Shown here: one piece after another, positions 15,320 to 48,283 of the stretch
How positions within the stretch are numbered: position 1 is the first letter of the stretch
How the letters are laid out: every line of letters starts with the position of its first letter
Virus record (IMG/VR): IMGVR_UViG_3300027749_000046
Source of the DNA: a virus
Length of the DNA: 64,000 bases
Direction: 5' to 3' (one strand)
The notes under the pieces: generated by a model
Seen by the model: the letters and a program-made list of their open reading frames with translations, nothing else
The model's database searches: none
What the model was told of the DNA's origin: nothing
Position numbers and translations under genes: made by a program

Positions 15320-16894
15320 TTACTTGATAACATACACGCGAACTTCGCCGCGAGATCCTGGTTGATTAGTAATGCCGCAGCCGCCGCCGCCTGGAGTACT
15401 AGAACCCGTAGTGCCATTGGCACCGTATCCGCCAAATATAGAAATACCAACGCCTGCGGTTGTTGTGCCCATGCCGCCGCCGCCGCCAAAGACAGAATTT
15501 CCAGCAGCTCCTGTCATAGCCGCACCTCCGGCTCCACCAAATATAGATGTTCCACCATTGCCGGCAACACCTCCGCTGGTACCGCCGCCGCCACCACCAC
15601 CGAACGTGCTAATACCTCCAGCAGTACCAGAAGCACCGCCAAGTGGTCCTCCAGCTGTTCCGCGGCCGCCGTTGTTAAATGTACCGCCCCCTCCGCCGCC
15701 AAGTCCAGTACTGCCTGCTCCGCCGCCTCCGTACGCTAATAAAGTTCCAAAGCTAGAATTACTCCCGTTTGCTCCAGCCGTGCCGCCTGATCCAACTGTC
15801 ACACTAGCAGAAGTTGCTATAGAGCTGTTAGACAATAGAAACATTCCCTGTTCATATCCACCGCCACCACCACCTGAGTTATTAGTCGAGTTATTTCCAC
15901 CACCGCCGCCACCCCACATCATTACAAACACTGTTTCATTTCCAGATAAAAACGGCCGTATAAAGTTATTCGTGTCATTTAACGGATTAATCCAAGTTTG
16001 CGTAGTGGTTGAATCCGTAAAGATCTGAGTATTGACTATGGCACCTAGAGGAACAGATGCTCCTGGAAAGCCAATTCCATTCCAAGTAACACCGCTTAGA
16101 GTGAGAGATGGAACAGATATGCCATAGGGAGTTATGATGCTGGTATTACCGGTGTTAAACGTGTTAGAATTTACGTTGACTGTTCCGTATGTGCCAGTGC
16201 CAACTCTAATGGTCGTTGTATCACTGAATGCAAAGTTAGAAAAATCAGAAGTAAAAGTACTAGACCCAGGAGGCGCGTACGAGAATGTAAACCCACTTCC
16301 GCTAAACTCACAATTCATTATAATTCTTATTCCATAGTACTGACCCGCAACAAGATTAGCTGTAGCTATATTTGGTCCAGCACTTGAGTTGATGTTTAAG
16401 TTCGAGTACAAAGCATTGGCACTTTGAAGATACTGGTTAGTGCTGTTAGCAATGCCTAGACCGGCATTTGCTCCTAAAAATATACCTATTAAGTTATAAG
16501 CATAACTTGCGTCTGTAGACAGATTAAAAGACCACTGACCTGTTGTTCTCGGCAGCAAGTATCCAGTCCACATATAAGAAGTTGAAATCTGTACTCCATC
16601 AAGAGTATCAGAGCTATTATTCAAGCTTCTGAAGTCAAAATAAGTGGTATAACCTATGTTATTAGCATAGTAGTTGCTGTCGAAGATATGATTTATATTT
16701 CCATCCCCATACCAGCCGATACCTTGCTGTGCGTACTCTGTGAATAAAAGACCATTACTGAGAGGGCCAGAAGCGACCACAGACGGGCCAATAGACGTAT
16801 TATTAGTATTAGCTATAGTCAAGCCATTAAAAGATAAGCTTGAAGAAGTTATGACAGAGTTAGATATATTTGCATTGGCTACTATTAATTGCAT
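15320..16894 (-). CDS. Fibre-tip/adhesin with PA14/GLEYA-like lectin domain and C-terminal glycine-rich (gp38-like polyglycine) domain
   Basis: WTGYLLPRTTGQWSFNLSTD...LVAGQYYGIRI...FSYAPPG (PA14-like); QIFT...MWGGGGGG...GSRGEVRVY glycine-rich domain. Confidence 0.7.
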   Translation of the reverse strand: MQLIVANANISNSVITSSSLSFNGLTIANTNNTSIGPSVVASGPLSNGLLFTEYAQQGIGWYGDGNINHIFDSNYYANNIGYTTYFDFRSLNNSSDTLDGVQISTSYMWTGYLLPRTTGQWSFNLSTDASYAYNLIGIFLGANAGLGIANSTNQYLQSANALYSNLNINSSAGPNIATANLVAGQYYGIRIIMNCEFSGSGFTFSYAPPGSSTFTSDFSNFAFSDTTTIRVGTGTYGTVNVNSNTFNTGNTSIITPYGISVPSLTLSGVTWNGIGFPGASVPLGAIVNTQIFTDSTTTQTWINPLNDTNNFIRPFLSGNETVFVMMWGGGGGGNNSTNNSGGGGGGYEQGMFLLSNSSIATSASVTVGSGGTAGANGSNSSFGTLLAYGGGGAGSTGLGGGGGGTFNNGGRGTAGGPLGGASGTAGGISTFGGGGGGGTSGGVAGNGGTSIFGGAGGAAMTGAAGNSVFGGGGGMGTTTAGVGISIFGGYGANGTTGSSTPGGGGCGITNQPGSRGEVRVYVIK

Positions 16895-16898
16895 CTTA

Positions 16899-18467
16899 TT
16901 ATCCTACGTGTGTTATCCATACTCTGACCTCGCCGCGCGCACCTGCGCTATATGTGCTGACACCAGTGCCGCCTCCACCTGGAATACCTGCAAGTTGAGA
17001 CGTATTAGCGCCCTTTCCTCCAAAAGTCGAAGTAGTAACAGCAAGAGCGCCTGTACCACCGCCTCCACCGTATATACTAGATCCGCCGGCATTGACACCA
17101 GTGCCGCCTCCGCCTCCTCCGTATACAGACCAACCGGCTGCGGTCGTATTATTAGATCCAGCGCCGCCGCCGAATGTAGAATTTGAAGAAGTGCTATTAC
17201 CTCCTAGGGGACTTCCTCCAGTAACAACAGTGCTGTTACCTATTGCGCCCGCTGAAAAAGTACCGCCTCCAGATCCACCCGAAGATCCTGTGGTAGAATT
17301 TGCAAATCCACCGCCGCCGCCATATGCTGTGATAGAGAAAGTAGTGTTTGCATAGAAGATAGAGTTACCGCCAATACCTCCGTTTGCACCTGTAGTGCCT
17401 GCTGCCCCGCCTAGTCCCACTACAACGTTACAAGTGGCATTGCACTGGCTAGCTAGAAGATTAACCACAGTGCATCCGCCACCGCCGCCGCCGTTGTTTA
17501 TGGTATTAGCAGACCCGCCACCACCACCACCCCACATCATTATTGTGATCAAGTCGCCGCTCGTCGTATTAGCTGGTTTAGTCCAAGTTCCATTCGCCGT
17601 GAACACCTGGTAGTTCGATGTATTACCAAGAGGTGCAGAGGGGAAAGACGTGTAGTTCGTTCCGTTGATAGTTATGCTGTTTGTTGATAGTCCGCTGGAA
17701 TTTATAACAGAATTGCCAGCTGCTATAGAAGTGCTATTAATAACAACGTTGCCTACTGATATATTTTGATACGTCGTAATAGAAAGTGTCGGAGTATAAC
17801 TTGACGGAGAAGTTCCAATTTCTAGCTGTGGACCCCAGATATACATTCCTGAAGTTCCATCGCCGGTGTATGTCTGATAAATTCCAGATACATCTGTTAA
17901 GTAGTACGAGAATACTAAATTCTGCTGGTTACTAACAGTAAACGGAACATAGACTCTATACCAACCGTTTCCAACATAAGTTGTATTTCCAAAGTAATTG
18001 CCGATAGCTGAACCATATGAAGTAGTAGTATAATACGCTCCGTTATTGAGAAGATCAAAATTATATCCAAGGCCATCAGTATAAGATATATCTTCGCACA
18101 TAAGTTCCGCATAGCGCTTCTCTGCTGCCTTAAAGTACATGCTGAAGCAGATAGGAGTTGTGCCTGGCCAGCTTGGAAATGAAGATTGAGATACAGGGTT
18201 ATTATAGTAAGATATATTGTGCCTGCTGTAGCTCGTGTCTTCTGTCAATTTATAGGCGGTGAGAGTTCCATCGGGAGCGATAGTCGCGTTGGCTGTTAAT
18301 GTAACACCAGTTTGATTCCATGCTGCGCCGCTGAATGTCTTACTATATAAAAATCTATTCTCTCCGCCGCCTGCAGATATGGTCTGAGTGCTCGTAGTAT
18401 TACCTATTACGAGAGTATTGGCTTGTATAGAACCGACATATACAGTCGTGGCATTTACCTGTGACAT
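16899..18467 (-). CDS. Fibre-tip/adhesin with CBM-like jelly-roll insert and glycine-rich domain
   Basis: NRFLYSKTFSGAAW...APDGTLTAYKL...GNGWYRV...YTGDGTSGMYIWGPQLE...SYTPT insert; QVFTANGTWTKP...MWGGGGGG...GARGEVRVW. Confidence 0.7.
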   Translation of the reverse strand: MSQVNATTVYVGSIQANTLVIGNTTSTQTISAGGGENRFLYSKTFSGAAWNQTGVTLTANATIAPDGTLTAYKLTEDTSYSRHNISYYNNPVSQSSFPSWPGTTPICFSMYFKAAEKRYAELMCEDISYTDGLGYNFDLLNNGAYYTTTSYGSAIGNYFGNTTYVGNGWYRVYVPFTVSNQQNLVFSYYLTDVSGIYQTYTGDGTSGMYIWGPQLEIGTSPSSYTPTLSITTYQNISVGNVVINSTSIAAGNSVINSSGLSTNSITINGTNYTSFPSAPLGNTSNYQVFTANGTWTKPANTTSGDLITIMMWGGGGGGSANTINNGGGGGGCTVVNLLASQCNATCNVVVGLGGAAGTTGANGGIGGNSIFYANTTFSITAYGGGGGFANSTTGSSGGSGGGTFSAGAIGNSTVVTGGSPLGGNSTSSNSTFGGGAGSNNTTAAGWSVYGGGGGGTGVNAGGSSIYGGGGGTGALAVTTSTFGGKGANTSQLAGIPGGGGTGVSTYSAGARGEVRVWITHVG

Positions 18468-19516
18468 TAGTAGAGCTTCCTTAGTGTGTAGACACGAACT
18501 TCACCGCGTGCCCCGGTCGTGTTTGTCAATCCCGAACCTCCACCCCCAGGAACTGCAGCAGCCACCGAAGAATTTGCGCCAGATCCACCATAGATTGATT
18601 GGCCGCCGGTACCAGTAGTTCCCGCTCCACCGCCGCCTCCATATATAGATTGGCCGCCGGCGCCAGTAGTACCAGATCCACCTCCACCGCCATAAACTGA
18701 ACCACCGGCTGCAGTTGCAGAAATTGTACCGCCGCCCCCACCAAATGTTGAATTATTAGACGCCGCAGAACCACCGACTGCGCCAAGAGGACCGCCACCG
18801 GTATTAGCAGTGCCCGCACTACTCCAGCCGCCACCACCGCCGCCTACAGTAGTATTCGCTGCGCCGCCACCGTATGCAGTTAGTAGATTGCCGATGATGT
18901 CAGAAATAGAGCTATTACCACCAGCGATACCAGCAGTGCCGCCGCCCCCAACAACTACGTTAGCAGTGTAACCAGCACCCGCGCCACCAAGACCCGGACC
19001 TTGATCGCCATAGATACCATATACCATAGCACCGCCACCACCGCCAAAACCAGTAGTTGTATTACCACCAGCCCCTCCGCCCCACATGTAGACAAAGTAC
19101 AACTCGTGGCCCGTATTAGCCCAAGCCGGCCTCGTCCATTGTCCATTCGCGGTGAATATCTGTGTGTTGACCAACTCAGTTGTAAAGCTGAAATTAGTCA
19201 ATAAAGAATTAGCCCCTATTCCATTCGCGGTGAATAGATGTCCTCCGCTGTTATAGCGATTATATGCGTTTGAGGCATAGTAAGAAGCAGCGTTTGTATA
19301 TCCGCCGACGTAGATAGATGGAGTCACTATAGTGGAAGACAAGATAACATTGGAAGTAGAATTACCGACTACTATCGAAGTAGTATTCGTTGTTATATTG
19401 TTAGATATAGGAATATACGAAGTAGAATTAATTGTGAGATTAGAAATACCCCCTAACACCAGAGTATTTGCGTTTAGATATGTTACAGTCAGAGTTGATA
19501 GCTGAAGTGTCGACAT
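18467..19516 (-). CDS. Fibre-tip/adhesin, glycine-rich domain only
   Basis: QIFTANGQWTRP...MWGGGAGG...GARGEVRVY; paralog of the two downstream genes. Confidence 0.7.
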   Translation of the reverse strand: MSTLQLSTLTVTYLNANTLVLGGISNLTINSTSYIPISNNITTNTTSIVVGNSTSNVILSSTIVTPSIYVGGYTNAASYYASNAYNRYNSGGHLFTANGIGANSLLTNFSFTTELVNTQIFTANGQWTRPAWANTGHELYFVYMWGGGAGGNTTTGFGGGGGAMVYGIYGDQGPGLGGAGAGYTANVVVGGGGTAGIAGGNSSISDIIGNLLTAYGGGAANTTVGGGGGGWSSAGTANTGGGPLGAVGGSAASNNSTFGGGGGTISATAAGGSVYGGGGGSGTTGAGGQSIYGGGGGAGTTGTGGQSIYGGSGANSSVAAAVPGGGGSGLTNTTGARGEVRVYTLRKLY

Positions 19517-19519
19517 TCT

Positions 19520-20227
19520 TTATCCCGTCTTATATTCGAATATACCAGTATTTATAGGTTTGATACCAGTTAAGATCTCTACTAAAGCGCCTTGAGTTCC
19601 CGCATGGTTGAATGGAACTGCTGGATCGCACCAGATATCTAGACCGGACTCGATAGCTCGCTTGCAGAACACGTAGTCCTCACCCCAGAACTCACCGTCT
19701 ATCAGCTCGGTGTTGAAGAATGCATACCCGTCTTCTATCTCTCCTAGTATGTTCACCACGCTGTAGTAGAGCTTGGAGTGGAACTCCTGCATCTTCTCTA
19801 CTGCAGATCTCGTCATCATGAGAAATCCAGCCGGCACCCCTAGCATCTTGAGCAGGTTGCCCTCGGACTCTATCGCTCCATTCTCTATCGTCTTCGGTAT
19901 GAACAGGAACTTCTTTCCCACGTCGGCGTTCGTTCTAGCCGGATACACGCCCGCCACTATGTCCCTATCATAATTCAGAAACTTGAGAGGCGCCTCTGGA
20001 TGCCAGGCTAAGTCGCTGTCGATGCAAAGCAAGTGAGTGCAGTCGGACTCGACAAATGCTTGAACTATCTCGTTGCGCTCTCTGGCGAGTATAGAGCCGG
20101 TCGTAGGAAGCAGGAGCTCCGTCTTTACTTTTGCTTGGTCTAGTATATAGAGGCTTCGAGTTAGAGATAGAACATATGCGTTGTCAACTTTACCGTGGTG
20201 GCATGGCGTTGCGATCATAAGCTTCAT
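19520..20227 (-). CDS. GT-A fold (GT2-like) glycosyltransferase
   Basis: N-terminal IATP strand, ARERN helix, THLLCIDSD (DxD), DIVAGVYP, GFLMMTR, GEDYVFC...G.DIWCD....H motifs. Confidence 0.85.
   Translation of the reverse strand: MKLMIATPCHHGKVDNAYVLSLTRSLYILDQAKVKTELLLPTTGSILARERNEIVQAFVESDCTHLLCIDSDLAWHPEAPLKFLNYDRDIVAGVYPARTNADVGKKFLFIPKTIENGAIESEGNLLKMLGVPAGFLMMTRSAVEKMQEFHSKLYYSVVNILGEIEDGYAFFNTELIDGEFWGEDYVFCKRAIESGLDIWCDPAVPFNHAGTQGALVEILTGIKPINTGIFEYKTG
19549..19556 (-). promoter_or_regulatory. Probable late promoter TATAAATA in the 3' end of the glycosyltransferase gene, serving the glycine-rich tip genes
   Basis: Exact consensus about 33 bp upstream of the ATG at 19516. Confidence 0.55.
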
Positions 20228-20242
20228 AATATAAGTTCTCCA

Positions 20243-21721
20243 TCATGTCTTTATGTATATGTATGTGTTTCCATAGTTAGCAGTCGCAGTGTCATAAACT
20301 GGAATCCCTCTAGCTGTGCCGTAGTACTCTTCTAAGAAAGGCGGCGTGATGAACTGCGTGTTGGAGTTATAAGGTATAACTTTGCTATAGATAGTATTGC
20401 CTAACCCCTGCGAAGAGCCTCCAACTACCACATATACGTTGTTACCATATGAGATATTTAAAGCTCCCCATGAACCTAAACCACCATAACCACTACCGCT
20501 GCTAACAACTCCGCACGCTTTAGTAAGTATAGAAGACGAGATATTTGTCCACGTTATGCCGTCTGTAGACGTCTGTGTGCTGCTCATTCCGCCGCCGCCA
20601 TATGATGGACCTAAGCCGCCGATGGACTGTGCGCCAAGAGCAAAGAATCTACCGTTCACGAACTTTATGGTGCTTATGCCTGTATAGCTATTTGCCGTCT
20701 GTCGCGCAGTCCAGTTAACACCGTCTGTTGATGTCTGTACCCATCCTCTACTGTAATAAAGACTTGCGTCAAGAACAAACGTACCATTTCCATAATCGCC
20801 AGTGTAGTGTGTATTATTATTAGCAATATAAGCATAATCACCGTCAAATGCTCCGGTTCTAGTAGTCCAAGTAATAAGATCCGTGCTAGTTGATATGCTT
20901 GGTCTTCCAACGCTATTAGCGCTGGCGCAAACATACACGCCATTTCCATACATCAAGGCACCGTAGACCCAGCTATTAGAAATCGTGAAAGGTATAGTAT
21001 ACGCGCTACTCCAAGTTGTTCCGTCTGTAGACTTAATGGTATTGGCAGACGACCCCGACGTCGTTCCATTTAGATATGAACTTACAACGAATGTATTATT
21101 AACTATATAAACTTGACCTGTGTTTCCAGTTCCTAAAGTTATTCCTGCTGCGGTGTACGCTGATGAAGTTGCATTAGACCAAGTAATAGCGTCTGTAGAA
21201 TTATATACGTTTAGACCAACATCAGAGTATACGAACTTGCCGTTTCCGTACGCTATTGCCGTGCCGCTGTATCCTACCGGATAAACTGCGCTTTGCGTCC
21301 ATGTTATACCATCGGTTGATCTTAAGTATAATGAATTGCCTCCAATTATTGTAGCTACAAAAACGCCGTTTCCGTATACGATACAGTTCGCCCCATACAC
21401 AGATGGGTTGGGGACTGTCCCCGATGAAAATGGATTAGATACCCATGAGTTTGAAGAAGAGACAATTGTGGAGAGATTTGGATAGTCGACACTATTATAC
21501 GGGGTGTTGCTCACTGATATATATCCAGCAGGCGCGGTACTGTTTGCGCTTAGAAGATAAGTACCCGTAGAGTTGTACTGAGAAGATGAAGCCGCGCTCA
21601 CGAGAGACTGAGTGTTCGTGGCAATTCCGTTTGCAGTTATGGTCACACTATTATTCGAGAAGTTCACGCCGTTGACGCTACCGCTGTCAAAGTAGATTGA
21701 GTTGGTCTGAAGTATCGACAT
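20243..21721 (-). CDS. Fibre-tip protein with Asp-box/BNR-like beta-propeller repeats
   Basis: Repeated (I/V)xYGNGxFV...STDGITWT units. Confidence 0.72.
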   Translation of the reverse strand: MSILQTNSIYFDSGSVNGVNFSNNSVTITANGIATNTQSLVSAASSSQYNSTGTYLLSANSTAPAGYISVSNTPYNSVDYPNLSTIVSSSNSWVSNPFSSGTVPNPSVYGANCIVYGNGVFVATIIGGNSLYLRSTDGITWTQSAVYPVGYSGTAIAYGNGKFVYSDVGLNVYNSTDAITWSNATSSAYTAAGITLGTGNTGQVYIVNNTFVVSSYLNGTTSGSSANTIKSTDGTTWSSAYTIPFTISNSWVYGALMYGNGVYVCASANSVGRPSISTSTDLITWTTRTGAFDGDYAYIANNNTHYTGDYGNGTFVLDASLYYSRGWVQTSTDGVNWTARQTANSYTGISTIKFVNGRFFALGAQSIGGLGPSYGGGGMSSTQTSTDGITWTNISSSILTKACGVVSSGSGYGGLGSWGALNISYGNNVYVVVGGSSQGLGNTIYSKVIPYNSNTQFITPPFLEEYYGTARGIPVYDTATANYGNTYIYIKT

Positions 21722-23208
21722 TATGTTGCCCTCAAGTATGATATTTGATCTCCAGCAGTAACTTTAGTACGCAGCTTGAAGTAAGTCTGCGGGTCGTATG
21801 AGAATAGATTACTTCCAAAGGTAGTACCTAAAGATCTAAATGTCCCATTTAGATAAGCATTAGCTGTACTGTAGATATAAGGGCCGGAAGTCAGACCGGC
21901 ATTACCGTCTAAAAGATACCCAATAGTAGAAGTATTAGTCGGAATTATATAAGATCCTAAAGATCCCTGATAGATTATAGAACCATTAACAGAAGCAATA
22001 CAACCGCCTATAGACGGGCTTAGAACACCATTAGAATAAAAATTCGCGCTATTGTCAGCCGATGTAATGTTAGTACTTCCTGTTATGTGAATTGTATTAA
22101 TACTGGAGAGATATAGAAAATTCTGACTTCCAGTCTGCAAATTTACCATAGAAGGTAAAATTGTATTTGTACTGCTGGTGGTAGAGGTGCCGTCTAGATT
22201 AGACACAGTCCAGGTAGTACCGTTCGTGGACCTGCATATCCTCAATCCGCCGCTCCCTCCACCAGAAGGAGGTCCATACCCTACGGCCACAAAGTATCCG
22301 TTCGCGTATCCGACGTTAGTAAACACGCAATTGCTGGTAAATGGATTAGTTCTATTTGTCCAAGTTATTCCGTTTGTTGATGTCTGTATACTTCCTATTG
22401 ACGTAAGAGGAAATGAGTATACTGCACTAATACCAAGTGCTCCGGTATTACCACCTACAGCCACGAAGACACCATTCCCATAGGCAACAGAGTAAGGCTC
22501 TGTAGATGTATTTGCCAGAGTTCTAAGGGTCCAAGAAGACCCATTAGAAGAAGTCTGCAGTGTAGATGATCCATTTAACGAGTTCGAAACTGCTTGAGCT
22601 ATAATGAAGACGCCGTTTCCATATGCAAGAGCACCTGGATTATAATAATTACTAGCTGAGGTCATATTAGGAGAGCTTGTGGTGTAAGTCCACGTTACAG
22701 AGTCTGCGCTGTAGTATACAGCATTAGCATTTAATCCCCCTGATAATCCATCATATCCAATTCCCACGTATACGTTATTTCCAAAAACATAATCAAATAT
22801 TGCGCATGACTGTGGCGCGGTAGTAGTGTTGGCTAACAATACCACCGGAGTATATAAAAGTAGATCTGCATATGAGTAGGCATAGGTATTATAGTAACCC
22901 AGCCAAGTTGAGTTCGCATTCTTATTCTGCAGGATACCAGTGGGAATTAGATTGGCATTAGTAAAAGTTGCGCCGCTTGGGAAGATTACATACTCATTGA
23001 TCTTGGTCTCGTTTACGGCAGAGCCGTTGAAGTAAGCCGCAGTGGAGTTGACAACCATATTTGCTGAGGATACAGAAGTAGAGTTGATGATGTATGTCTG
23101 CGTGTTCGCAACTATATTGAGCGTCTGGTTAGTAGGACTCGACGTATTAGCGTATATCCTGTTGTTACCAGAAGAGTCGAAACTTAAGTTTGATACTACT
23201 ATGGTCAT
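21721..23208 (-). CDS. Fibre-tip protein with beta-propeller repeats (paralog)
   Basis: AYGNGVFV...QTSTNGITWT repeats; TAATG-type coupling to both neighbours. Confidence 0.72.
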   Translation of the reverse strand: MTIVVSNLSFDSSGNNRIYANTSSPTNQTLNIVANTQTYIINSTSVSSANMVVNSTAAYFNGSAVNETKINEYVIFPSGATFTNANLIPTGILQNKNANSTWLGYYNTYAYSYADLLLYTPVVLLANTTTAPQSCAIFDYVFGNNVYVGIGYDGLSGGLNANAVYYSADSVTWTYTTSSPNMTSASNYYNPGALAYGNGVFIIAQAVSNSLNGSSTLQTSSNGSSWTLRTLANTSTEPYSVAYGNGVFVAVGGNTGALGISAVYSFPLTSIGSIQTSTNGITWTNRTNPFTSNCVFTNVGYANGYFVAVGYGPPSGGGSGGLRICRSTNGTTWTVSNLDGTSTTSSTNTILPSMVNLQTGSQNFLYLSSINTIHITGSTNITSADNSANFYSNGVLSPSIGGCIASVNGSIIYQGSLGSYIIPTNTSTIGYLLDGNAGLTSGPYIYSTANAYLNGTFRSLGTTFGSNLFSYDPQTYFKLRTKVTAGDQISYLRAT

Positions 23209-24650: not shown

Positions 24651-24667
24651 GATATCTCTCTATTCAA

Positions 24668-25297: not shown

Positions 25298-25307
25298 CTC
25301 ATTTTCC

Positions 25308-39131: not shown

Positions 39132-39158
39132 TAATTTCCTCTTAATTAGAACTATTTG

Positions 39159-39166
39159 TATTTATT
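39159..39166 (-). promoter_or_regulatory. Late promoter (AATAAATA)
   Basis: Intergenic, between the two DUF4815-like halves. Confidence 0.6.
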
Positions 39167-39200
39167 GCGCGTTCAGATGATTATTCAAAAGTAGACGCTA

Positions 39201-42200
39201 TCAAGTGTCATCGCCTTCACCTACAGCAGTTCCAAGTCCATTTTCTTGGTTTGCAAATCCATAATCAGTTTTATTATCTTGACTATTATTCTCAGGTCCG
39301 CGATTATCCCATGCTCGGCCATTGTCACCAAGACCATTAGAAGTTTCTTCAGGAGGTGGCGGTAGAGGAGCGAGTCTAGTCGCGGGAAGACTAAATGCAC
39401 CTACAGAAGAATTATCGCTGCTCTTAACTAGAACTACCTTTTTTGTAGGATTGACATTTGTATTCTTATACAGATTATTATATGCGTACTCATCTATATT
39501 AATCATGATAAAGAAATTTGCACTGCCGCTGGCATCAGTCTGCACTTGATCTGTAACTTGACTTACCGATGTGCTTGCTGGTAGACTATCGCTCGATAGA
39601 AGTATAGCTGAGTTTGACAGTAGCTTATCATCTAGGTATATGCTGTGCTTTGTAAGAGGCTTGAGACTCTTCATCTTTATACTTACTTTTTGTCCGTACC
39701 AGATTAGAGCATTCTTATTGTCATATCTTGGTATCACTAAAGTATCAGGATCTACACTTACAGCAACGCCATTATAGATAGTAGCATCAATACCGCCCTT
39801 TGTAGCCCCAGTTGCTATATTCTGAGATACAACGCTGTACTCTTGGATATACGTAATTTTATTATTTCCGGTGTGATTTATGAGCACAGGAAGATCTGCC
39901 GGCGTGATCATACCATTTGATACTCTGGCATTATACTCGACATTATTAATATCGGTAAATGAGTAGTTTGAGAATGTATCTGTAAAGAACCCAAACTTAA
40001 ATCTATTGATACTTGGAGAAATAGAGCTCGGTATGGTAGTGTCTTTTATAGAAGTTTCCAACATCGTAAGACCAGTGTAGTACTCTAATGCGCGTATTCT
40101 TTTCTCAAGAGTTCCTATGTCTCGCATAGTATAAGCTATTGGCTGTATGCTATTTCTATTGGAGACATAGTTAGTCGTAATAGAGTGATTTTGTGATCTA
40201 ATGAAACTGTATTTCTCAGTTGCTATTCTCGTGTTAATAATATTATTAAGATTTGTAGATCTATGCAGGGGTATAGATGGATACGGCGGATTAACAACGT
40301 TACTTATAACCATAGTATTGCTTGGCGTACGAGGATTTGGTAGGCGTGTTCCCTCAGCGCTCTGGCCTTTGACTAGAGATATCTTTCCAGTAGTATCAAC
40401 TATCACGTTATCTCTTCTTCCTAAGAAGTGAGACTGATTGAAAGTTACGCCTGAACCCGGTACCGGAAATTTCTTATCAGACGTATAACTACCGAACGAT
40501 AGACTATATACTGGATTTACGTTTGCAGCAGCTGCATTGCTAGTTATCACAGCGGTGTTTACTGCGCTCGGTCTAAAGTCTATCTGGTCGATCAAATCAT
40601 AGTATCTTCCACTCGAAGCGTACATCTCAGGTATCTCAAGCGTATTATAGCTGGACCCAATACTCGACAAGTTCGATGAGTCAGTTGAGAACCGCGTGCT
40701 CAAGTTGGCGCTGACGTAAGATGATACCGTGTGTAGACTTCCGGCTGTCGTAGAGGCGTCAAATTGAACTAGAAGCCAGTTGGTAGTAGACAGACTCAAG
40801 CTTGATGTTGACTTCTTGTGGATATAGCCAAGATCATAGAAGTCTTCATTCTGGTTGTGATCGATATAGAACTCATTGGTAACATCTGAGCTGCTGGTTG
40901 ATACGTTAGAGTTGTCTGCCAGATATACATTCTTGAGGCGGAATATATCCGGAACACCTAGGCACCAAGGTCCATTTATTCCAGCTGCGTTATTAGCTAG
41001 TCTGATCTTTACAAAGCTGTCTCTGTTAGCTGTCTTTGCGTCTGCAGCCACACCGTTTCTATTGACGTTGTAGACCACAGAGACGTTTGCTGCAGAGGTC
41101 GCTGTAGTATTAACGTTGAGACTTACCGTGAGTATAGTACCGTTTGTATTGACATTTGCTACAAAATTATCTCTCTGAAGAGCTGGAGAAGACAGAGGTA
41201 TAGCCACGTTCTTTGGAAAGTATCTCGCCATACTGGCTGCTGAGTTTGAGAAAGATAGCTTGGAGTCCACATATAGGAAGCTATTATTGACTACAGCAGT
41301 TACTTTCTTTATGTCGTATACTGTTGAGTTCGCATAGAAGTAAACATAATCGCCGGCTATGAGGCCGCTGGTGGCACTTGCAAATACAGTACTCGTTCCA
41401 TATACGTTGGATGTACCGTCTGCGTTATTTGCAGCACTGGTTACGTTTGCAGTTCCCGCGAGGTCTGGAGTTATTCTCAAGCCTGCATTGAGCGGAGTTA
41501 TGATAATATCATTCTTTTGATCAAAGGTAAGAGTAGTACCGCCTACGTATTGAAACACCTCATTGGGAGAAGAAAGAAGACTTATCTGGAGCGAACCTGT
41601 ATTTGAGAGAGTTATTCCGTTATTTACGGTTCTATAGAGATAATTTAGATTGCTCACGGCGAGAGTTGATTTTGTTCCTGTATTAAACAGCATCTTATTA
41701 ACGCCGTTTATACCTCTTACTAGATTAGCTATACTTGTATTGCTAGATGCATTATAAGCCAGTAGTACGTCGGCCACACCCTTTACGGTACCGTTGTAGT
41801 TAATACCCTTTACCGAGCTGAAGTTGGCTCCAGCAATCATATTAAGATTAAAGAGATACAGTCTATATACTGCGCCGCTGAATCCGGGAGTACCAGATAC
41901 GTGAAGCATCTGACGAATATTCGCAGTGCCAATCTTATTACCAGAGTATCCAGAAGGAGGTATTGTACCTGCAGAAATTGCCGCAGTATTAGATAGATAT
42001 CCATACGCTTTGTCATAGAGATCTATTGAATCACCCGTGCTAAACATAAAGGTGCCTGCGACTTGACTGATGTCGACGTAGTTCTCATAGGATACGTTTA
42101 TACCAGATCCATTACTCGAGCTGTAGTCGATTGCCTTGATATTATCAAATGCGTAGTTGAAGAGAGTAGATACCCTAAAGCCAGATACGTATGCAGTACC

Positions 42201-43691
42201 TGGATCTACGACTATGGTGTATGTATTTGCATCAAGAGAAGTATTAGCAGGAGATTTTGTTGTAGTTAAAAACCTATCTGTAACATAGTCGCCCGCGCTC
42301 TCTGCTGTGCGAAGAGCCATCTCGTCTTCTATAGCATTATACTGCGTTACTCTATTCTGCTTGTATGGATAACCCTCCGAGAACTCAACTATGCTGAGAA
42401 AATCTGTATTTGTAGAGGCAATATCAGTATTTGATACAACGAGAACAGGCTTTATCTTAAGTCTGTCTGCACCAGGAGCCATTGAATTTGGAGTTCCGGT
42501 GGAGTTGTCGAGAAGATTTGTATCTGCATTATAGTCAACGATCGTCTCGACAGCGCCAAATCCAATTGAGACGTTATTAGGATAAGAGTTATACATGCTT
42601 ACCACCGTTGTCTGCGGGTCGACATTCAAGAAGTATCCGTTCTTGTAGATAACTCCAGAGGTAACACCAAAGGCATATCCATTGCCAATTGCATTCGCTG
42701 TGCTTGCGATCTTAATCTGACTTATATAATTGTAAGCGATAAGAGCGAGAGTACCATAGTTACCGCCTGTGGTATAGTTCTGTCTGATTGTAACATACGG
42801 TGGAACATAGTAGTTTGATCCGCCGTTGATTATAGAAAGATTCTGAATAGCGCCGATCGTGCTGTCTGTAATTATAGATGCCGTAGCGCCTGCGCCGATG
42901 ATCTCGTCGACTCCGGCCGCAGCGCCTGAAGACCCGCCGAGTATAGAATAACCGGGAACGAACTGCCACTTTGCTAGTGACACGCTCGTATTAGTGAGGT
43001 CTGTCTGAACTGGCTTGAGTGAGAGTATTGACTTTCCGGGAATAGTAGTCGTATCAATACCGTTGATGACAGCGCGACTGTTAGTCGTCGACTGCGTTAT
43101 TGTCTCGCCGTTGCTGAACGCCGTAGAAGAAGTAAGATTAGCGAGAATTGCTGGAACTATGACTACGGTGTCTGTATTAGCCCATCCTGTTGACCCATTT
43201 GTGATGGAGGTCTTACTTAGACTATTATTGCTGTCGTATATTACAATGGTATCGCCAGACGAGAAAGAAGTAAGATTGCCTGATGTGCCGCTGTTGATAT
43301 AGCGCATGTAGATTGTGTTGAGATTAGGATCTTGAGACTCATATCCGTCTGCAGAGTTTATAACTTGAGCGCGCAGATTGTTAGTTGGATTGCGAGCAAA
43401 GTGTCCAACGTATAGAGCAGGAGCAGCTAGAGTGCCATCGGTCTCTTTATCGAGAAGCTTTGCATACGGGTAGTTATCAAAGAATACGAAATTACAACCG
43501 TTGATTATAGTGCCGCGTCTATAGATGTTATTACCAAACTGCTCTATCTGATTCTGCAGTATGGCCTGAAGCTGGTTGAGCTCTCTTGTTTGAACGGCAA
43601 CAGACGGCTTGAATAGAATCCTATAGTATTCATTTGCTGGATCATAATCATCATAGTATGGAGCAACATCTAGATTTGTAGTAATAGGCAT
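39201..43691 (-). CDS. DUF4815/VrlC-like large virion structural protein (N-terminal half)
   Basis: TNLDVAPYYDDYD...YYRILFKPSVAVQTRELNQLQAILQNQIEQFG, APGADRLKI, YTMRDIGTLEKRIRALEYYT, RFKFGFFTDTF. Confidence 0.85.
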   Translation of the reverse strand: MPITTNLDVAPYYDDYDPANEYYRILFKPSVAVQTRELNQLQAILQNQIEQFGNNIYRRGTIINGCNFVFFDNYPYAKLLDKETDGTLAAPALYVGHFARNPTNNLRAQVINSADGYESQDPNLNTIYMRYINSGTSGNLTSFSSGDTIVIYDSNNSLSKTSITNGSTGWANTDTVVIVPAILANLTSSTAFSNGETITQSTTNSRAVINGIDTTTIPGKSILSLKPVQTDLTNTSVSLAKWQFVPGYSILGGSSGAAAGVDEIIGAGATASIITDSTIGAIQNLSIINGGSNYYVPPYVTIRQNYTTGGNYGTLALIAYNYISQIKIASTANAIGNGYAFGVTSGVIYKNGYFLNVDPQTTVVSMYNSYPNNVSIGFGAVETIVDYNADTNLLDNSTGTPNSMAPGADRLKIKPVLVVSNTDIASTNTDFLSIVEFSEGYPYKQNRVTQYNAIEDEMALRTAESAGDYVTDRFLTTTKSPANTSLDANTYTIVVDPGTAYVSGFRVSTLFNYAFDNIKAIDYSSSNGSGINVSYENYVDISQVAGTFMFSTGDSIDLYDKAYGYLSNTAAISAGTIPPSGYSGNKIGTANIRQMLHVSGTPGFSGAVYRLYLFNLNMIAGANFSSVKGINYNGTVKGVADVLLAYNASSNTSIANLVRGINGVNKMLFNTGTKSTLAVSNLNYLYRTVNNGITLSNTGSLQISLLSSPNEVFQYVGGTTLTFDQKNDIIITPLNAGLRITPDLAGTANVTSAANNADGTSNVYGTSTVFASATSGLIAGDYVYFYANSTVYDIKKVTAVVNNSFLYVDSKLSFSNSAASMARYFPKNVAIPLSSPALQRDNFVANVNTNGTILTVSLNVNTTATSAANVSVVYNVNRNGVAADAKTANRDSFVKIRLANNAAGINGPWCLGVPDIFRLKNVYLADNSNVSTSSSDVTNEFYIDHNQNEDFYDLGYIHKKSTSSLSLSTTNWLLVQFDASTTAGSLHTVSSYVSANLSTRFSTDSSNLSSIGSSYNTLEIPEMYASSGRYYDLIDQIDFRPSAVNTAVITSNAAAANVNPVYSLSFGSYTSDKKFPVPGSGVTFNQSHFLGRRDNVIVDTTGKISLVKGQSAEGTRLPNPRTPSNTMVISNVVNPPYPSIPLHRSTNLNNIINTRIATEKYSFIRSQNHSITTNYVSNRNSIQPIAYTMRDIGTLEKRIRALEYYTGLTMLETSIKDTTIPSSISPSINRFKFGFFTDTFSNYSFTDINNVEYNARVSNGMITPADLPVLINHTGNNKITYIQEYSVVSQNIATGATKGGIDATIYNGVAVSVDPDTLVIPRYDNKNALIWYGQKVSIKMKSLKPLTKHSIYLDDKLLSNSAILLSSDSLPASTSVSQVTDQVQTDASGSANFFIMINIDEYAYNNLYKNTNVNPTKKVVLVKSSDNSSVGAFSLPATRLAPLPPPPEETSNGLGDNGRAWDNRGPENNSQDNKTDYGFANQENGLGTAVGEGDDT

Positions 43692-43703
43692 CTTCTATCC
43701 TTC

Positions 43704-45734
43704 TTAAAACTCAAGAGTGAGCTTGAATGTTTCCGTCTGATCGCTTCTTCTATTTACTGCGTCGATATTCTCGATGTACAGTATATCTCCGCTTCCATAG
43801 ACTATCTCTGGATAGTATTTATTAGTAGGAGTAAATATGGCTCCAGAATTAGTTCCCCTTACGGTATTAGACGCCCCTAAGTTAAATGTGCCGATAGCTT
43901 GGGTAACATAGAGTCTATTGTAACTCCCGTAGTTTACAAGAGAGTTATACACTGCATTTGCGGTGAATGTATCAGTAGATGGAGTTATAATCTCATTATT
44001 AACAAAAGTACCAGAATTTAAAGTTCCATCATACGAGAACATCTGCACGAAAGTATCAAAACTCTTAGTCTGATTGCTTCTTGAAACTGTGTTGACAGTG
44101 GCCTTGCAACCCGTTTGACTTCCAACTATCAGATCTGAGTTGGAGAAGATGCCATATGAGTTTGTGACCTGAATTGCTCCAGTTGTAGCTTGAATAACAT
44201 AGCCGGAAGAATCAGAATCAGGAAGCGAGATGCTAGCGGAGGTATCAGTGAATATAGAGTTGGTAGTAAGAGTTAAGTAAGTGCTATTTCCTACGCTGTT
44301 TACGGTACTAAGTTGATAAGTAGTGCTGTCGTTGGATACTAAGTAGATCATATCGCCAGAATTAAACTGATTGTTAAAGTCTGTACCGCTACCAGTTACA
44401 GCTGTGCTGTATAGATTTATAGTAGCAGTTCCTACTATCTTTACTGGGTTTATTCTAAATACTTTCTCTCCTATAGAGAACGCACTGGACACCGCAGTCA
44501 GAGTCATGCTCACATTAGAGAACAGAGGATTCTTCATGATTCCTATTTGACTATAGGAGGCGTTAGCCACTATCGTATTGCCCTCGCTGTTTGCAAGATT
44601 AACGCCGATAGTTGCGTACTTCGCACCTAGTTCTGCAAATATATTAGCGCCATGACCGTCTTTTGGCGGGAGTATCGGACGAATACTAGCTTGTCTAAAG
44701 TTGCTAGAAGAAACTACTATTGGACTTGCATTTACCACTGCAGTTGCATACTTAAAGTCTCTGCCACGGCTTAGCATCTTTATAGAAGACACGCTATTAC
44801 CAGAGTAAGAGTTTATTATAGCAATTGCATATGCATTTATAGACTGAGTGTAATCTCCTATAATCTCTACTGCGGGATACAACTCATATTGAGAAGTATT
44901 ATCTGGATTTATAGGAAATGTAGAATCAAGAACTACAAACTTCTTAGTGCTATTGGCAAATGATGCCAGTACTTTCTGATACTGCCCTTGACCAGTTCCA
45001 GAAGTTATATGAAGGTAGCAGCCGGTATAGGCATTATTCGTGGTGGACGCAGAATTTGATAGGGCGTATACCAGACTGTTAGCGTTTAGTCTCGTATCGC
45101 TGACTGAGAATGTTCCCGTTAGATAGTTAAAGTATCCAGACCCACCGTCCACGACTTTTACTATGTCTATAGAACCAGGAACTGCCGCTGCAGTAACGCT
45201 CGTGTTCTCAAATACAGGAAAATAATCAGTAGTCATAAACTTATTTGTCTGACTCTGAGAAGATGTGCACATGTACTTCCACTTGTAACCATCAGACGTC
45301 TGATATATCTCATCATTTGCAGTTACTTGCGATATACTCGGCGATATAGTAGAGGCAGTATTACCGTTGTTGTCTACACACTTAAATACGTGCTTGTACG
45401 TTCCCTCTGTTACTATAGCATAGAATTCTTCATTAAAGATATTAGCATCTACATCGTCGTACATCGCGTATACCGTATTTGACTGATAGTCGTATCTTGG
45501 TATACTGAGGGCTACGTCAGAACTATAGATCTTCTTTCCATAGAGCATATTTCTATATGCATCTGATAGAGTATCATGTGTGTCATCATATGCCGTCTGT
45601 ATGGTATTAAATGGCACGCTGTATCCAGCAAAGAAATAATACCTATTATCAGCGGTCGTATCAAACGACATGATAAAGTTCTTTGCGTTATTTAGACCAT
45701 AATTCGTAGTTATTAGTTTTTGTGATTGTGACAT
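43704..45734 (-). CDS. gp8: Baseplate wedge subunit (gp8-like)
   Basis: IPRYDY...YAMYDD...VFKCVDN...TSDGYKWKYM; GHGANIFAELGA; SGDILYIENI...QTETFKLTLEF. Confidence 0.85.
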   Translation of the reverse strand: MSQSQKLITTNYGLNNAKNFIMSFDTTADNRYYFFAGYSVPFNTIQTAYDDTHDTLSDAYRNMLYGKKIYSSDVALSIPRYDYQSNTVYAMYDDVDANIFNEEFYAIVTEGTYKHVFKCVDNNGNTASTISPSISQVTANDEIYQTSDGYKWKYMCTSSQSQTNKFMTTDYFPVFENTSVTAAAVPGSIDIVKVVDGGSGYFNYLTGTFSVSDTRLNANSLVYALSNSASTTNNAYTGCYLHITSGTGQGQYQKVLASFANSTKKFVVLDSTFPINPDNTSQYELYPAVEIIGDYTQSINAYAIAIINSYSGNSVSSIKMLSRGRDFKYATAVVNASPIVVSSSNFRQASIRPILPPKDGHGANIFAELGAKYATIGVNLANSEGNTIVANASYSQIGIMKNPLFSNVSMTLTAVSSAFSIGEKVFRINPVKIVGTATINLYSTAVTGSGTDFNNQFNSGDMIYLVSNDSTTYQLSTVNSVGNSTYLTLTTNSIFTDTSASISLPDSDSSGYVIQATTGAIQVTNSYGIFSNSDLIVGSQTGCKATVNTVSRSNQTKSFDTFVQMFSYDGTLNSGTFVNNEIITPSTDTFTANAVYNSLVNYGSYNRLYVTQAIGTFNLGASNTVRGTNSGAIFTPTNKYYPEIVYGSGDILYIENIDAVNRRSDQTETFKLTLEF

Positions 45735-48283
45735 TATGCATAATACCTGGTACTAGATGATGATCCATTGGCTATTGTTATAGTAGATAAATTTATCATA
45801 GAAGGCTGATTTATCAATGACTTTTTTGAAACCTGAGAGAAGTACTTTGTGCCAGCCACATGAAGAACTTGCTTTAGCATCTCCACGTACTTATCTAGAT
45901 TAATCGGAGTCTTTATAACATATGAGAAGTCTTGATAGTAGTTTCCATCATATAGGTATTTATTGTCACTCAAGAAACCGCCGTTTGTTCTATTATAACC
46001 AGAACCGGTTCCCTGCTTGTTAGCATAACCCTCTGCAATTCCAGATCTTAATCCATCTAGGGAAGTAAATGTAACGTTCTCACCATTTATGTATCCGAAT
46101 CCAGAGTCGACCACTTCAAGTTCATTTACTGCGCCGTTTGCGTTGCTGACGGATGTTCCTATCACGTCGTTTAAGCCTGCAAATGGGCTGTCTTGATAGT
46201 TCCATAGAGCAAGATCGGCAGTAAATCCAGAGTCTTGACCGACTATCTTGTGACTGGTATCAGTAAATCCATAGACAAAACGATCCTCGAAAGTTATTCT
46301 CCTGATATAGGCATTAGTTGAGTTTGCAAACTTGACTATGCCCTGACCGCCGCCGTTGCTCTGCTTTATGATCTCACCGGTATAGAACGTACCAGTTGCA
46401 TTGCTTAGAGTAAAGAAGAAATCTTTCTTCTGCAGGGGAGCTACCAACGGCTCGTATATCGACACGAATGGGGCATATGTGTATAGAGATCCTGGATTAA
46501 TACCAGTGAGAGATGCTACAGTTCCTAGACTATAGTGAGTAAAGTTGAGAGCCGAAGATAGAAGAAAACTTGCATTCGCATGATGAAGTGCGGCGCCGTA
46601 GTCGGATGCATTGAGAGCTACATTTCGGTATGGGTATATGTAGTCTGTTATAATAACATCTTCTTGATTTGTCAAGCTGCCTATCTGAAAAGTAGCTCCA
46701 GAACCAGATGGTATGCTACTTACAGTTCCATTTATATTACTTATAGGATCATACACGTAATTTCCAGCAAGATCATAGAAAGTATTATTTGTCGTTATAA
46801 TACCTATGTCAAACGCAATGGTATTTACAGAAGCAGTGATGACCGGACCATTCGCAGATGTATACTGATCGCTGTATATATTATTTCCGCTGACAAATAT
46901 ACCATTTGTATTATTAAGAAATAAAGTACCTGACAATCCGGAAACCGTGGTGCTCCTTACAACGCCGTTCGCCGTTTGATTACCCAAGCTATCTAATTGA
47001 AAAATATTAGATCCAACAGCAAAGTTACCGTACACCGCATTTGCATAATTTATAGAAGTATTCGTAGATAGTCCTATGACTTGTCCCTGCGCGGTCAGGT
47101 CTATAAATCCAGAGTTAACAAGATTTGCAGTCACCACATTTCCGGCATTATAAAATACCACGTTTGACTGGAGATTGCCGCTAGTCGTAGATACAAGAAG
47201 ATAACCAGAAATATTATTAGAAGTAGTTATGCTCAGTATATTTCCCTTGCCGGTAACAGAGCCGTTTGCGGCGTATGTAATGAGGTTATCGCCTACCACA
47301 AATTTTGCATTTGCAGTAGATCCATTACTGTACTTTAAGTAGTTGTACTGAACGTTTGCAATAGGCTGAACTACCGTCTCAATACTATTTAAGAAGCTGC
47401 TGTTTACCGCGTACGTAGTTGTATTTGCAAGTCTCAGTACTTTATCGGAAATAAGCACCTGTGCATCAGAAGCGTATCCCCAGCCGCCGTCTATCAGATT
47501 AAAGTTAACCTGACCATTGAGTATGGTGAGACTCTTTACGCGAGCCTTGCCCTGTTGGCCGCCGGCCTCGCTGAGATTTACTATATCTCCAATCTTAAAG
47601 TCTTTACCTCTGTCAGATGTGACTCCGAGGGCAGTAAGAGACCCTGTTACGATTGGATTATTATTGATAACTGTATTGCTATTATAGAGAGATATAGTCT
47701 CGCCTGTTATGAAGTCTTTAGTTAGACCCGATATGTAGAATATATCGATGTACTTTCCCTTGATTCTTCTGGTAACTACGTACTCGACGAACGCAAGAGC
47801 ACCAGATGTAAGTCCCTGGATCTCTTGGTTAACAAAAAGCTTGTTTTCTTGACTTGGAGTTACCTCTAGATAAGTCGGAATAAACCACGCTGCATCTGAA
47901 GTTCTAAAGACATCATTTCCCGGATAATAGGTCTCTACGTCTTGACCATATACCAGCTTGAAGAAAAGATTAATGGCTCTCTCTGTGCCCTTAGATCTAT
48001 AGAGATCTAGACTGTGCTTTACTAGAAGCTTCGTGTCTGTTGCAGTATCAAACTGGATGTTCTTTAGATACTTCTCTTTGAAGTGAACTAAGAAAGTATC
48101 TACAGTAGTGTCTATATCGCCGTAGTCAAGAATTCTTCTTGCATGATATGTTGCGTTTCCTGGCGACTCAAGCCACTCGTAGTAGGCCTTTATGAATCTT
48201 ATAAAATCAGGTCCATATATCCTGTATATATCAGGAAATTGACTTGGTATGAACGAAGATATCTTCTTGTTTATAACAGACAT
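45734..48283 (-). CDS. gp7: Baseplate wedge initiator (gp7-like)
   Basis: QFPDIYR...FIRFIKAYYEWLE, LYRSKGTERA, YYQDFSYVIK...LHVAGTKYF; between gp6 and gp8. Confidence 0.75.
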   Translation of the reverse strand: MSVINKKISSFIPSQFPDIYRIYGPDFIRFIKAYYEWLESPGNATYHARRILDYGDIDTTVDTFLVHFKEKYLKNIQFDTATDTKLLVKHSLDLYRSKGTERAINLFFKLVYGQDVETYYPGNDVFRTSDAAWFIPTYLEVTPSQENKLFVNQEIQGLTSGALAFVEYVVTRRIKGKYIDIFYISGLTKDFITGETISLYNSNTVINNNPIVTGSLTALGVTSDRGKDFKIGDIVNLSEAGGQQGKARVKSLTILNGQVNFNLIDGGWGYASDAQVLISDKVLRLANTTTYAVNSSFLNSIETVVQPIANVQYNYLKYSNGSTANAKFVVGDNLITYAANGSVTGKGNILSITTSNNISGYLLVSTTSGNLQSNVVFYNAGNVVTANLVNSGFIDLTAQGQVIGLSTNTSINYANAVYGNFAVGSNIFQLDSLGNQTANGVVRSTTVSGLSGTLFLNNTNGIFVSGNNIYSDQYTSANGPVITASVNTIAFDIGIITTNNTFYDLAGNYVYDPISNINGTVSSIPSGSGATFQIGSLTNQEDVIITDYIYPYRNVALNASDYGAALHHANASFLLSSALNFTHYSLGTVASLTGINPGSLYTYAPFVSIYEPLVAPLQKKDFFFTLSNATGTFYTGEIIKQSNGGGQGIVKFANSTNAYIRRITFEDRFVYGFTDTSHKIVGQDSGFTADLALWNYQDSPFAGLNDVIGTSVSNANGAVNELEVVDSGFGYINGENVTFTSLDGLRSGIAEGYANKQGTGSGYNRTNGGFLSDNKYLYDGNYYQDFSYVIKTPINLDKYVEMLKQVLHVAGTKYFSQVSKKSLINQPSMINLSTITIANGSSSSTRYYA

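Follow-up and report, generated by a model that had tools for sequence, protein, structure and literature searches.

An Asn-x-Thr signature of long fibres and a glycosyltransferase-propeller gene pair as apparently separate features of an uncultured T4-like phage

We analysed a 64,000-nucleotide stretch of viral DNA (IMG/VR record IMGVR_UViG_3300027749_000046; hereafter the window), in which the long tail fibres are rich in N-x-S/T, the sequon of Asn-linked glycosylation, and a small glycosyltransferase (GT) gene, P0001, lies among the fibre genes. A sequence-only reading had taken these observations together as a virion-wide N-glycosylation system, which appears to merge two separate features. 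The long fibres belong to a family of nearly uncharged, Asn/Ser/Thr/Gly-rich shaft proteins of uncultured T4-like phages, in which Asn-x-Thr, with x small and often Ser, Thr or Ala, may be conserved as a building block of a beta-rich, repetitive shaft, probably an Asx-turn or a corner between strands that places Asn and Thr on the same face; a sequon-shaped excess would then arise without any glycosylation. The GT, predicted to be transcribed late with the fibre genes, has as its conserved partner a receptor-binding protein of the Asp-box beta-propeller type, whose gene lies directly upstream, and most likely moves a sugar from a nucleotide sugar to Ser/Thr-rich tail-tip proteins during their synthesis, an O-link being more likely than an N-link. 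This would amount to virion glycosylation of the mycobacteriophage type, confined to host-recognition proteins. The combination, a structural N-x-T unit and a GT that glycosylates propeller and tip proteins, probably on Ser/Thr, is our best explanation, albeit a tentative one.

The window corresponds to bases 28213-92212 of the 104-kb IMG/VR contig G000 (completeness estimate 61%), from a T4-like phage whose major capsid gene is ~73% identical at the DNA level to those of Synechococcus myophages. Pfam profiles recognise the sheath, gp6, a gp7-like wedge protein, a gp8-like protein and a DUF4815 giant protein, and the fibre-rich island under study lies downstream of the latter (39201-43691). 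Sequons in its 13-protein fibre module (15320-35156, minus strand) were counted against whole-protein shuffles and against shuffles inside blocks of 10, 15 and 30 residues, which keep the local composition, with D-x-S/T and Q-x-S/T as control triplets. The fibre and tip proteins concerned (lengths in amino acids, aa) are as follows.

25308-28904, minus strand: 1198-aa long fibre, N 12.5%, S+T 28.5%; 66 N-x-S/T against 44 expected, z 4.4-4.5
29357-31042, minus strand: 561-aa fibre with Gp53-like C-terminal domain; 35 N-x-S/T against 21 expected, z 3.6-4.2
16899-18467, minus strand: 522-aa glycine-rich tip protein, Gly_rich_2 (Pfam); 23 N-x-S/T against 12.5 expected, z 3.9
18467-19516, minus strand: 349-aa glycine-rich tip protein; weaker excess at +2, z 2.3 (2.0-2.5 over this and the next protein)
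15320-16894, minus strand: 524-aa glycine-rich tip protein, GLEYA/PA14 and Gly_rich_2 (Pfam); weaker excess at +2, z 2.0
24668-25297, minus strand: 209-aa Gp53-like_C tip protein (PF21882, E 4e-13); 5 sequons against 6 expected
31352-33883, minus strand: 843-aa N/S/T-rich fibre; marginal excess, 30 against 24, z 1.4-1.5

The earlier hand count for the 561-aa fibre was exact (76 Asn and 35 N-x-S/T, or 6.2 per 100 aa), and the excess of Ser/Thr two residues after Asn (+2) survived both global and local shuffling in the 1198-, 561- and 522-aa proteins. The D-x-S/T and Q-x-S/T controls were flat in the large fibres, and only 1 N-P-S/T was present among 18 N-P. Neither of the two 209-aa tips showed a significant excess in the shuffles, as had been noted for the one listed above. 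The statement that the other large fibres look similar did not hold for all of them, as neither the 843-aa fibre (z 1.4) nor the three ~490-aa proteins (20243-24650; z 0.4-1.1) had a significant excess of sequons.

The excess has a distinct shape. In the 1198-aa fibre it lies in N-x-T (z 5.3) rather than N-x-S (z 0.5), while in the three glycine-rich tip proteins (15320-19516) nearly all of it is N-[ST]-[ST] (z 5.6, 5.3 and 3.1), with N[^STP][ST] flat. Throughout the module the +2 residue of sequons is Thr in 157 cases and Ser in 94, and V/I/L are depleted at +2 after Asn. Pooling the 13 proteins bore out only part of the supposed specificity for +2, which was raised, though +1 was almost equally so (z 5-6 each); positions -1, -3, +3 and +4 were not. 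The +1 excess is explained by the enrichment of N-[ST]-[ST] (z 3.3-5.6), since N-[ST]-[not ST] is not enriched. N-x-T is likewise enriched (z 3.3-5.3), and no enrichment was found in the module for N-x-S, T-x-N, T-x-T, N-x-N or S-x-S. Simple i,i+2 alternation in beta-strands, raised as a caveat by the sequence-only reading, thus fails for the window because only the directional N-x-T and N-[ST]-[ST] triplets are enriched; moreover, T4 gp34-37 and ten S-SSM7 fibre-region proteins show no +2 excess, and neither do N/S/T-rich fibres beside GTs elsewhere. A single repeated motif was also rejected as the source in the window fibres, as the sequon flanks are diverse, with no flanking residue above ~30%.

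Regarding overall composition, the 13 proteins are nearly uncharged (D 2.1, E 0.7, K 0.9 and R 1.4%), with N+S+T+G accounting for about half of the residues; charged residues make up 10-20% of the T4 and S-SSM7 fibres.

The signature recurs outside the window. We collected 105 distinct N/S/T-rich open reading frames (ORFs) from 63 loci anchored on relatives of the 1198-aa fibre, and 25 of them, in 16 loci, have z of at least 3 (up to 11.5) at sequon densities of 3-9 per 100 aa. With all 105 pooled, Ser/Thr around Asn is strongly raised at +2 (z 25.7), less so at +1 (z 12.2), and reduced at -1 (z -10.7) and +3 (z -5.3); the excess at -2 (z 8.9) is far below that at +2. BLAST alignments of 30 fibres revealed that Asn and the Ser/Thr at +2 are co-conserved, with an odds ratio of 3.8-4.0 compared with 0.6-2.1 for all other offsets, that Thr at +2 is retained more often (59% versus 44%), and that Ser accounts for slightly more of its changes (30% versus 22%), a suggestive but not decisive sign of hydroxyl-specific substitution. 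Asn residues in the related fibres avoid spacings of 1-3 (z ~-12) and peak at 4, 8, 12 and 16 (z 10.9, 3.7, 8.6 and 6.8), and the 1810/1951-aa fibre of the closest relative displays visible repeats such as VGANVxANATxLFVGNSTVN. Co-conservation, spacing and repeats together therefore point to the triplet as a selected unit of a repetitive shaft family. The signature is strong, replicated and family-specific, and would be the mark either of a repetitive fibre fold that has gone unrecognised or, with less likelihood, of phage fibres that are N-glycosylated, the first of their kind.

Considered alone, the triplet data are compatible with a true sequon as well as with a structural element. Judged from sequence statistics, structure is nevertheless favoured by the regular intervals between Asn residues and by the limits on what may flank the triplet. 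We infer a structural role because the excess tracks the fibre family, the neighbours are constrained, Asn is periodic, repeats are present in a relative, no known N-glycosyltransferase (NGT) was found and sequons are not avoided elsewhere. Beta-solenoid and beta-helix proteins offer a precedent, with Asn/Thr ladders, Asx-turns and regular spacing on one face or corner; the fibres here resemble them, at the level of sequence statistics, in the alternation of polar and small residues. Several observations weigh on the other side. Asn periodicity is weak in the 1198- and 561-aa fibres of the window themselves (z ~2), and their diverse sequon flanks are closer to a free-standing sequon than to a fixed repeat, which keeps the sequon reading alive. 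In addition, the co-conservation of Asn with Ser/Thr at +2, the preference for Thr and the scarcity of N-P-S/T are also expected of a true sequon. The structural role is a matter of statistics only: an AlphaFold2 (AF2) monomer of residues 1-520 of the fibre from locus L094, run with 15 aligned segments, reached a predicted local distance difference test score (pLDDT) of 37 and was unusable, and neither the 561-aa fibre nor the L094 segment had a match when searched by sequence against the PDB.

The same search with the 1198-aa fibre matched only a tip domain: residues 1096-1159, in its C-terminal part, correspond to the Bdellovibrio fibre Bd2133 (PDB 8ond, E 3e-5), and this tip domain is therefore common to phage fibres and fibres of a predatory bacterium. 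A further repetitive protein, the 778-aa fibre of two loci (L097:2708-5044 and L098:7347-9683), is encoded directly downstream of a divergent GT-A gene; its Asn autocorrelation peaks at lags 17 and 34 (z 15), a sign of a very regular 17-residue repeat, with Ser/Thr enriched at +1 (z 7) above +2 (z 4.5).

We then turn to the GT and its surroundings.

19520-20227, minus strand: P0001, 235-aa minimal GT-A glycosyltransferase, A197/Anp1-like (AF2 fold, structure match, phrog_1574 E 4e-21)
20243-21721, 21721-23208 and 23208-24650, minus strand: three paralogous ~490-aa tail proteins with Asp-box/BNR-like S-T-D-G-x-T-W beta-propeller repeats (motifs in the sequence)
28936-28943, minus strand: T4-type late promoter motif TATAAATA, ahead of the 1198-aa gene
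19549-19556, minus strand: TATAAATA, within the 3' end of the GT gene and ahead of the glycine-rich tip genes

The assignment of this gene as a DxD-containing GT-A enzyme, co-oriented with the tip genes, was confirmed by both fold and motif. The AF2 model (pLDDT 90.7, predicted template modelling score 0.88) comprises a single GT-A domain, which best matches A197 of Sulfolobus turreted icosahedral virus (STIV; 2c0n, Z 17.9, root-mean-square deviation 2.4 over 161 aligned aa, 20% identity), followed by Mnn9, the collagen glycosyltransferases ColGalT1/LH3 and mimivirus R699. Altogether 96 PDB representatives have Z of at least 8, the top rows being nearly all GT-A enzymes, as are the top Foldseek matches, with 'putative Anp1' as the Atlas match. 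Across 30 homologues at 44-62% identity, D70-x-D72, E174, W181-G-E-D184 and H208 are invariant, and more than 400 metagenomic homologues exist. At the sequence level, the best Pfam match was Anp1 at 13.4 bits, under the 28.8 cut-off, so that membership of a named CAZy/Pfam family was not reached, and a PDB profile search found nothing. P0001 is thus modelled as a soluble, minimal GT-A enzyme of the Mn/DxD type, its fold being clear and its activity presumed.

The gene begins 15 bp past the propeller gene and is separated by 3 bp from the tip gene on its other side. From the TATAAATA motif at 28936 a unit extends over the 1198-aa fibre, the tip, the three propellers and the GT, with no further TATAAATA before the GT; in agreement with the earlier suggestion, the GT would be expressed together with the fibre genes, as predicted from the late promoter consensus. 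The link to the propeller extends far beyond this phage. In a GT-anchored set of 80 IMG/VR loci, the ORF directly upstream of the GT contains 3-27 Asp-box-like motifs in 38 of 49 distinct loci, most commonly at a gap of -4 bp. Members of the P0001 subfamily (at least 40% identity) are spread over T4-like contigs and phages of ~40 kb; several of these smaller phages are complete, with terminal repeats, and there the GT is the last gene of the tail operon. The partner ORFs are rich in Ser/Thr (27-33%) and are not sequon-enriched. In some related fibre modules the fibre-linked GT is followed by further genes, for a second GT-A that is Anp1-like, a GT-B, an S-adenosylmethionine methyltransferase and DUF4376. 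Such multi-enzyme cassettes were seen at L008:10753-14074, L011:10693-12458, L059:10680-12523 and L058:8632-10091, and end at the gene of the T4 neck protein.

Glycosylation of the propeller by this GT is what we favour because of the fold and motifs, the co-transcription, the coupling in 38 of 49 loci, the related multi-enzyme modules and the precedent of A197. Two points count against this assignment: glycan, acceptor and donor of the GT are all putative, and the published reading of GTs in this region of the genome is modification of the host O-chain (PMC7029224).

The GT may instead alter a glycan of the host envelope (O-chain, lipopolysaccharide core or capsule intermediate, at the cytoplasmic face) that is recognised by the adjacent propeller, with the N-x-T richness being unrelated and structural. 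The receptor would thereby be masked on infected cells, superinfection blocked and progeny kept off debris. O-unit assembly typically employs small soluble GT-A enzymes, and linkage of a receptor-binding gene to one that modifies the matching receptor would make it clear why unrelated phages exchange the two as one module. In pelagi- and cyanomyophages, GTs are moreover described, along with sugar-nucleotide genes, as a feature of the 'host recognition cluster' between VrlC and the neck genes, where they have been read as serving O-chain modification (PMC7029224), and S-SSM7 has heptose and epimerase genes at the same site. The position of the gene speaks otherwise: it lies in a late structural operon, often with a 4-bp overlap with the propeller stop codon, as is typical of fibre assembly factors and not of early host-takeover genes, and it closes the tail operon of complete 40-kb phages; nor did we see a membrane segment or Gtr-like partners. 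We regard a host-glycan role as somewhat unlikely, second to the best explanation.

The island corresponds to the host recognition cluster of pelagimyophages and cyanomyophages (PMC7029224), which is situated between a DUF4815/VrlC-type giant protein and the neck genes and holds many fibres and glycosyltransferases, in the same layout as in S-SSM7. Here the assignment is based on the DUF4815 side (39201-43691, with fibres and GT downstream), not on neck genes. In Zaragoza-Solas et al. 2020 (PMC7029224), modification of the host O-chain was put forward without a test; neither the GT-propeller coupling nor the N-x-T signature is described there. GTs have already been described from this island (PMC7029224), as has the glycosylation of virions by phage-encoded GTs in mycobacteriophages. 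The present analysis adds the one-to-one pairing of GT and propeller, which recurs in unrelated types of phage, and an Asn-x-Thr signature that spans the fibre family.

The connection between GT and sequons, central to the sequence-only reading, dissolved in the comparison of relatives. Only two of 90 distinct N/S/T-rich ORFs beside P0001-family GTs are enriched, and the remainder, outside L004/L005/L040, pools to z -0.9. Conversely, the near-complete relatives G001-G003 (91-99% complete) possess strongly sequon-rich fibres (4.5-7.2 per 100 aa) and no GT of the P0001 subfamily. The two features are therefore decoupled both ways, the excess tracking the fibre family and not the GT, and as they do not travel together a virus-wide coat of N-linked sugars is unsupported. 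Equal sequon density in relatives lacking glycosyltransferases had been named as a finding that would refute the proposal, and it was seen in part: G001-G003 lack a fibre-operon GT at equal or higher density. All relatives do retain a GT-B and one or more GT-A paralogues, so that phage-encoded glycosylation may still occur, a point in disfavour of a purely structural account.

The sequence-only reading had further suggested that a priming NGT may lie outside the window. However, among phage contigs, GT41/HMW1C_N profiles found no match at E <=1 in G000, G001, G002, G003, G005 or G019, the only HMW1C_N match (12.8 bits) being under the cut-off, and STT3 (PF02516) had none in G000, G001-G003 or G019. 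The 104-kb contig and the 85-99% complete relatives with sequon-rich fibres thus contain no GT41, HMW1C_N or STT3. A periplasmic oligosaccharyltransferase route would, for its part, not reach virions assembled in the cytoplasm. Cytoplasmic HMW1C/NGT enzymes (GT41) have a GT-B fold and N-glycosylate adhesins. The present fibres show a comparable acceptor-like pattern, being long, repetitive, adhesin-like and exposed at the surface, synthesised in the cytoplasm and rich in N-x-S/T. The differences are the missing GT41/HMW1C_N gene, in the contig and the near-complete relatives alike, and the GT-A fold of the local enzyme; in addition, sequon richness did not co-occur with the GT across relatives.

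Could the long fibres nevertheless be truly N-glycosylated on Asn-x-Thr in the cytoplasm, as in the sequence-only reading narrowed to these fibres? An A197-like GT-A, fibre-linked or paralogous, would then serve as an unconventional Asn-glycosyltransferase, or the host would supply the enzyme, and phage GTs would extend the glycan. The directional N-x-T excess (z 4-12 in many independent fibres), the co-conservation of Asn and Ser/Thr(+2) far above other offsets, the preference for Thr with N-P-S/T scarce, and the T4 and S-SSM7 fibres without the pattern would all suit such a system, as would the GT-A genes adjacent to some sequon-rich fibres (L004/L094, L040 and L097/L098) and the presence in the genome of three GTs and a nucleotide-sugar dehydratase. 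These points meet the missing GT41, HMW1C or STT3 in the contig and the 85-99% complete relatives, the sequon-rich G001-G003 without a fibre-linked GT, the GT-linked fibres that mostly lack the excess, non-target proteins that do not avoid sequons, and, as signs of structure, the regular intervals between Asn residues and the constrained -1 and +3 positions. Furthermore, we know of no soluble GT-A that makes Asn-linked glycans on N-x-S/T. N-glycosylation of the fibres is accordingly quite improbable in our estimate, and the narrower version, in which the N-x-Thr sites are true acceptors for an enzyme outside GT41/STT3, for example an A197-like GT-A acting as an Asn-glycosyltransferase, we deem very improbable. 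If it were the case, the fibres would bear dozens to >100 N-linked sugars each. No bacteriophage virion would have been known to be N-glycosylated before, and the enzyme would define a new N-glycosyltransferase class.

The extension to the entire virion can be assessed from the remaining structural proteins.

8708-10888, minus strand: gp18 tail sheath, Phage_sheath_1/1C (Pfam); 12 sequons against 10.6 expected, insert segments z 0.35
35367-48283, minus strand: baseplate/periphery proteins of 1254 aa, 1496 aa (DUF4815), 676 aa (gp8-like) and 849 aa (gp7-like wedge) (Pfam)

For the 1254-aa, DUF4815, gp8-like and gp7-like proteins, whole-protein z values are 0.0, 0.2, -1.7 and 2.15, respectively, the last (45734-48283) under the global shuffle, and those of their N/S/T-rich segments are -0.7, 0.1, -1.4 and 0.6; gp6 is at expectation. 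The inserts of gp18, the gp7-like and gp8-like proteins and DUF4815, claimed to be dense in sequons, and likewise those of the 1254-aa protein, thus hold what their local composition predicts (z -1.4 to +0.6). The low counts in internal proteins are real, yet compositional: the 78 non-fibre proteins of the contig carry 137 sequons against 151 expected (z -1.3), with no avoidance seen, and the counts are low because these proteins are low in Asn and Ser/Thr. Acceptor enrichment beyond composition, as an NGT-type system would call for, is found in three to six fibre proteins only. With capsid-proximal, sheath and baseplate proteins and their inserts at expectation, and non-fibre proteins without avoidance, the 'virion-wide' claim therefore fails. 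What endures from the sequence-only reading is the counts, the sequon-shaped +2 excess in some fibres and the GT-A enzyme; the dense inserts, the avoidance, the NGT, the GT-sequon link and the virion-wide scope do not. More generally, sequon counts in N/S/T-rich virion proteins need controls for local composition and for protein family before they are read as glycosylation.

A role in DNA modification was also considered, prompted by a paralogue of P0001 elsewhere in the contig. This 284-aa A197-like GT-A is encoded ~14 kb before the window start (G000:C1:13582-14436, minus strand; L001:13582-14436), with 24% identity to P0001, phrog_1574 at E 2e-57 and a DSD to which D70-S-D72 of P0001 aligns. 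It is flanked by the gp45 clamp and a nucleotide-kinase-like gene, and its cluster also comprises a dCMP deaminase, a C5-methylase-like gene and a thymidylate-synthase homologue that, by hand alignment, has Asp at the position of ThyA-N177 (dCMP-type) and keeps D169. The paralogue occupies the same place at 75-80% identity in G002, G003 and G005, and in G001-G003 the only GT-A sits in the DNA-modification cluster. The paralogue, not P0001, is thus more likely the DNA-modification enzyme, as a candidate GT-A-fold DNA-base glycosyltransferase. P0001 itself could be a second DNA glycosyltransferase, extending a sugar on a hydroxymethylcytosine-type base, with the fibre location being an insertion hot spot. 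The conserved paralogue and its neighbours would agree with this, as would the late timing of DNA sugar transfer, which is said in PMC13326640 to precede packaging. On the other hand, the DNA hydroxymethylcytosine (hmC)/5hoC glycosyltransferases characterised in that paper match the GT-B type, and relatives with the same DNA-modification cluster lack a fibre-operon GT. The P0001 subfamily is in addition coupled to propellers in complete ~40-kb phages in which no thymidylate-synthase homologue was found, which argues against a DNA-base substrate. We retain this role for P0001 as a minor, highly improbable rival.

Returning to glycosylation of propeller and tip proteins by P0001, for which the substrates are what we infer, two virus systems provide the closest comparisons. 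To our knowledge, phage-encoded virion glycosylation has so far been known only in mycobacteriophages, where glycans have reportedly been shown on capsid and tail-tube subunits by Freeman et al. in 2023 (cited through PMC12801897). There, the structural proteins of the phage itself are modified in the cytoplasm by phage GTs, sometimes several of them plus a methyltransferase. Here, GT genes are predicted to form a late unit with the fibres, and extra GTs and a methyltransferase appear in related modules; the differences are that genes alone are at hand, that the candidate substrates are receptor-binding proteins, that the enzyme family is another and that the phages are aquatic T4-like and 40-kb ones. 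The second system is STIV, in which A197 is essential and the coat protein is glycosylated (PMC10551542). Like P0001, A197 belongs to this size class and consists of nothing but one GT-A domain with DxD, and its virus has a glycosylated virion, but STIV is archaeal, the sequence relation is too weak for Pfam, the acceptor of A197 is itself putative, and the gene here is tied to a propeller tail protein and not to a capsid protein. The GT-propeller pair is a compact two-gene module. Should its GT indeed decorate propeller or fibre proteins, virion glycosylation encoded by phages would no longer be confined to mycobacteriophages but would reach the abundant aquatic T4-like phages and a group of 40-kb phages, on proteins that determine their host range.

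Two minor observations concern the remaining sugar and replication genes. About 8.5 kb past the window end, next to RNase H, a GT-B (Glycos_transf_1, 324 aa) adjoins a nucleotide-sugar 4,6-dehydratase/epimerase (338 aa; the pair at G000:C1:100617-102619, minus strand, L003:8518-10520), and the GT-B has a homologue in 4/4 relatives checked. In the 96%-complete relative G001 (L152, G001:C1:104000-117000), many genes of the replication and modification region, the GT paralogue, gp45 and gp46-like genes among them, are split into 2-3 ORFs, which looks like frameshift-type assembly errors or decay.

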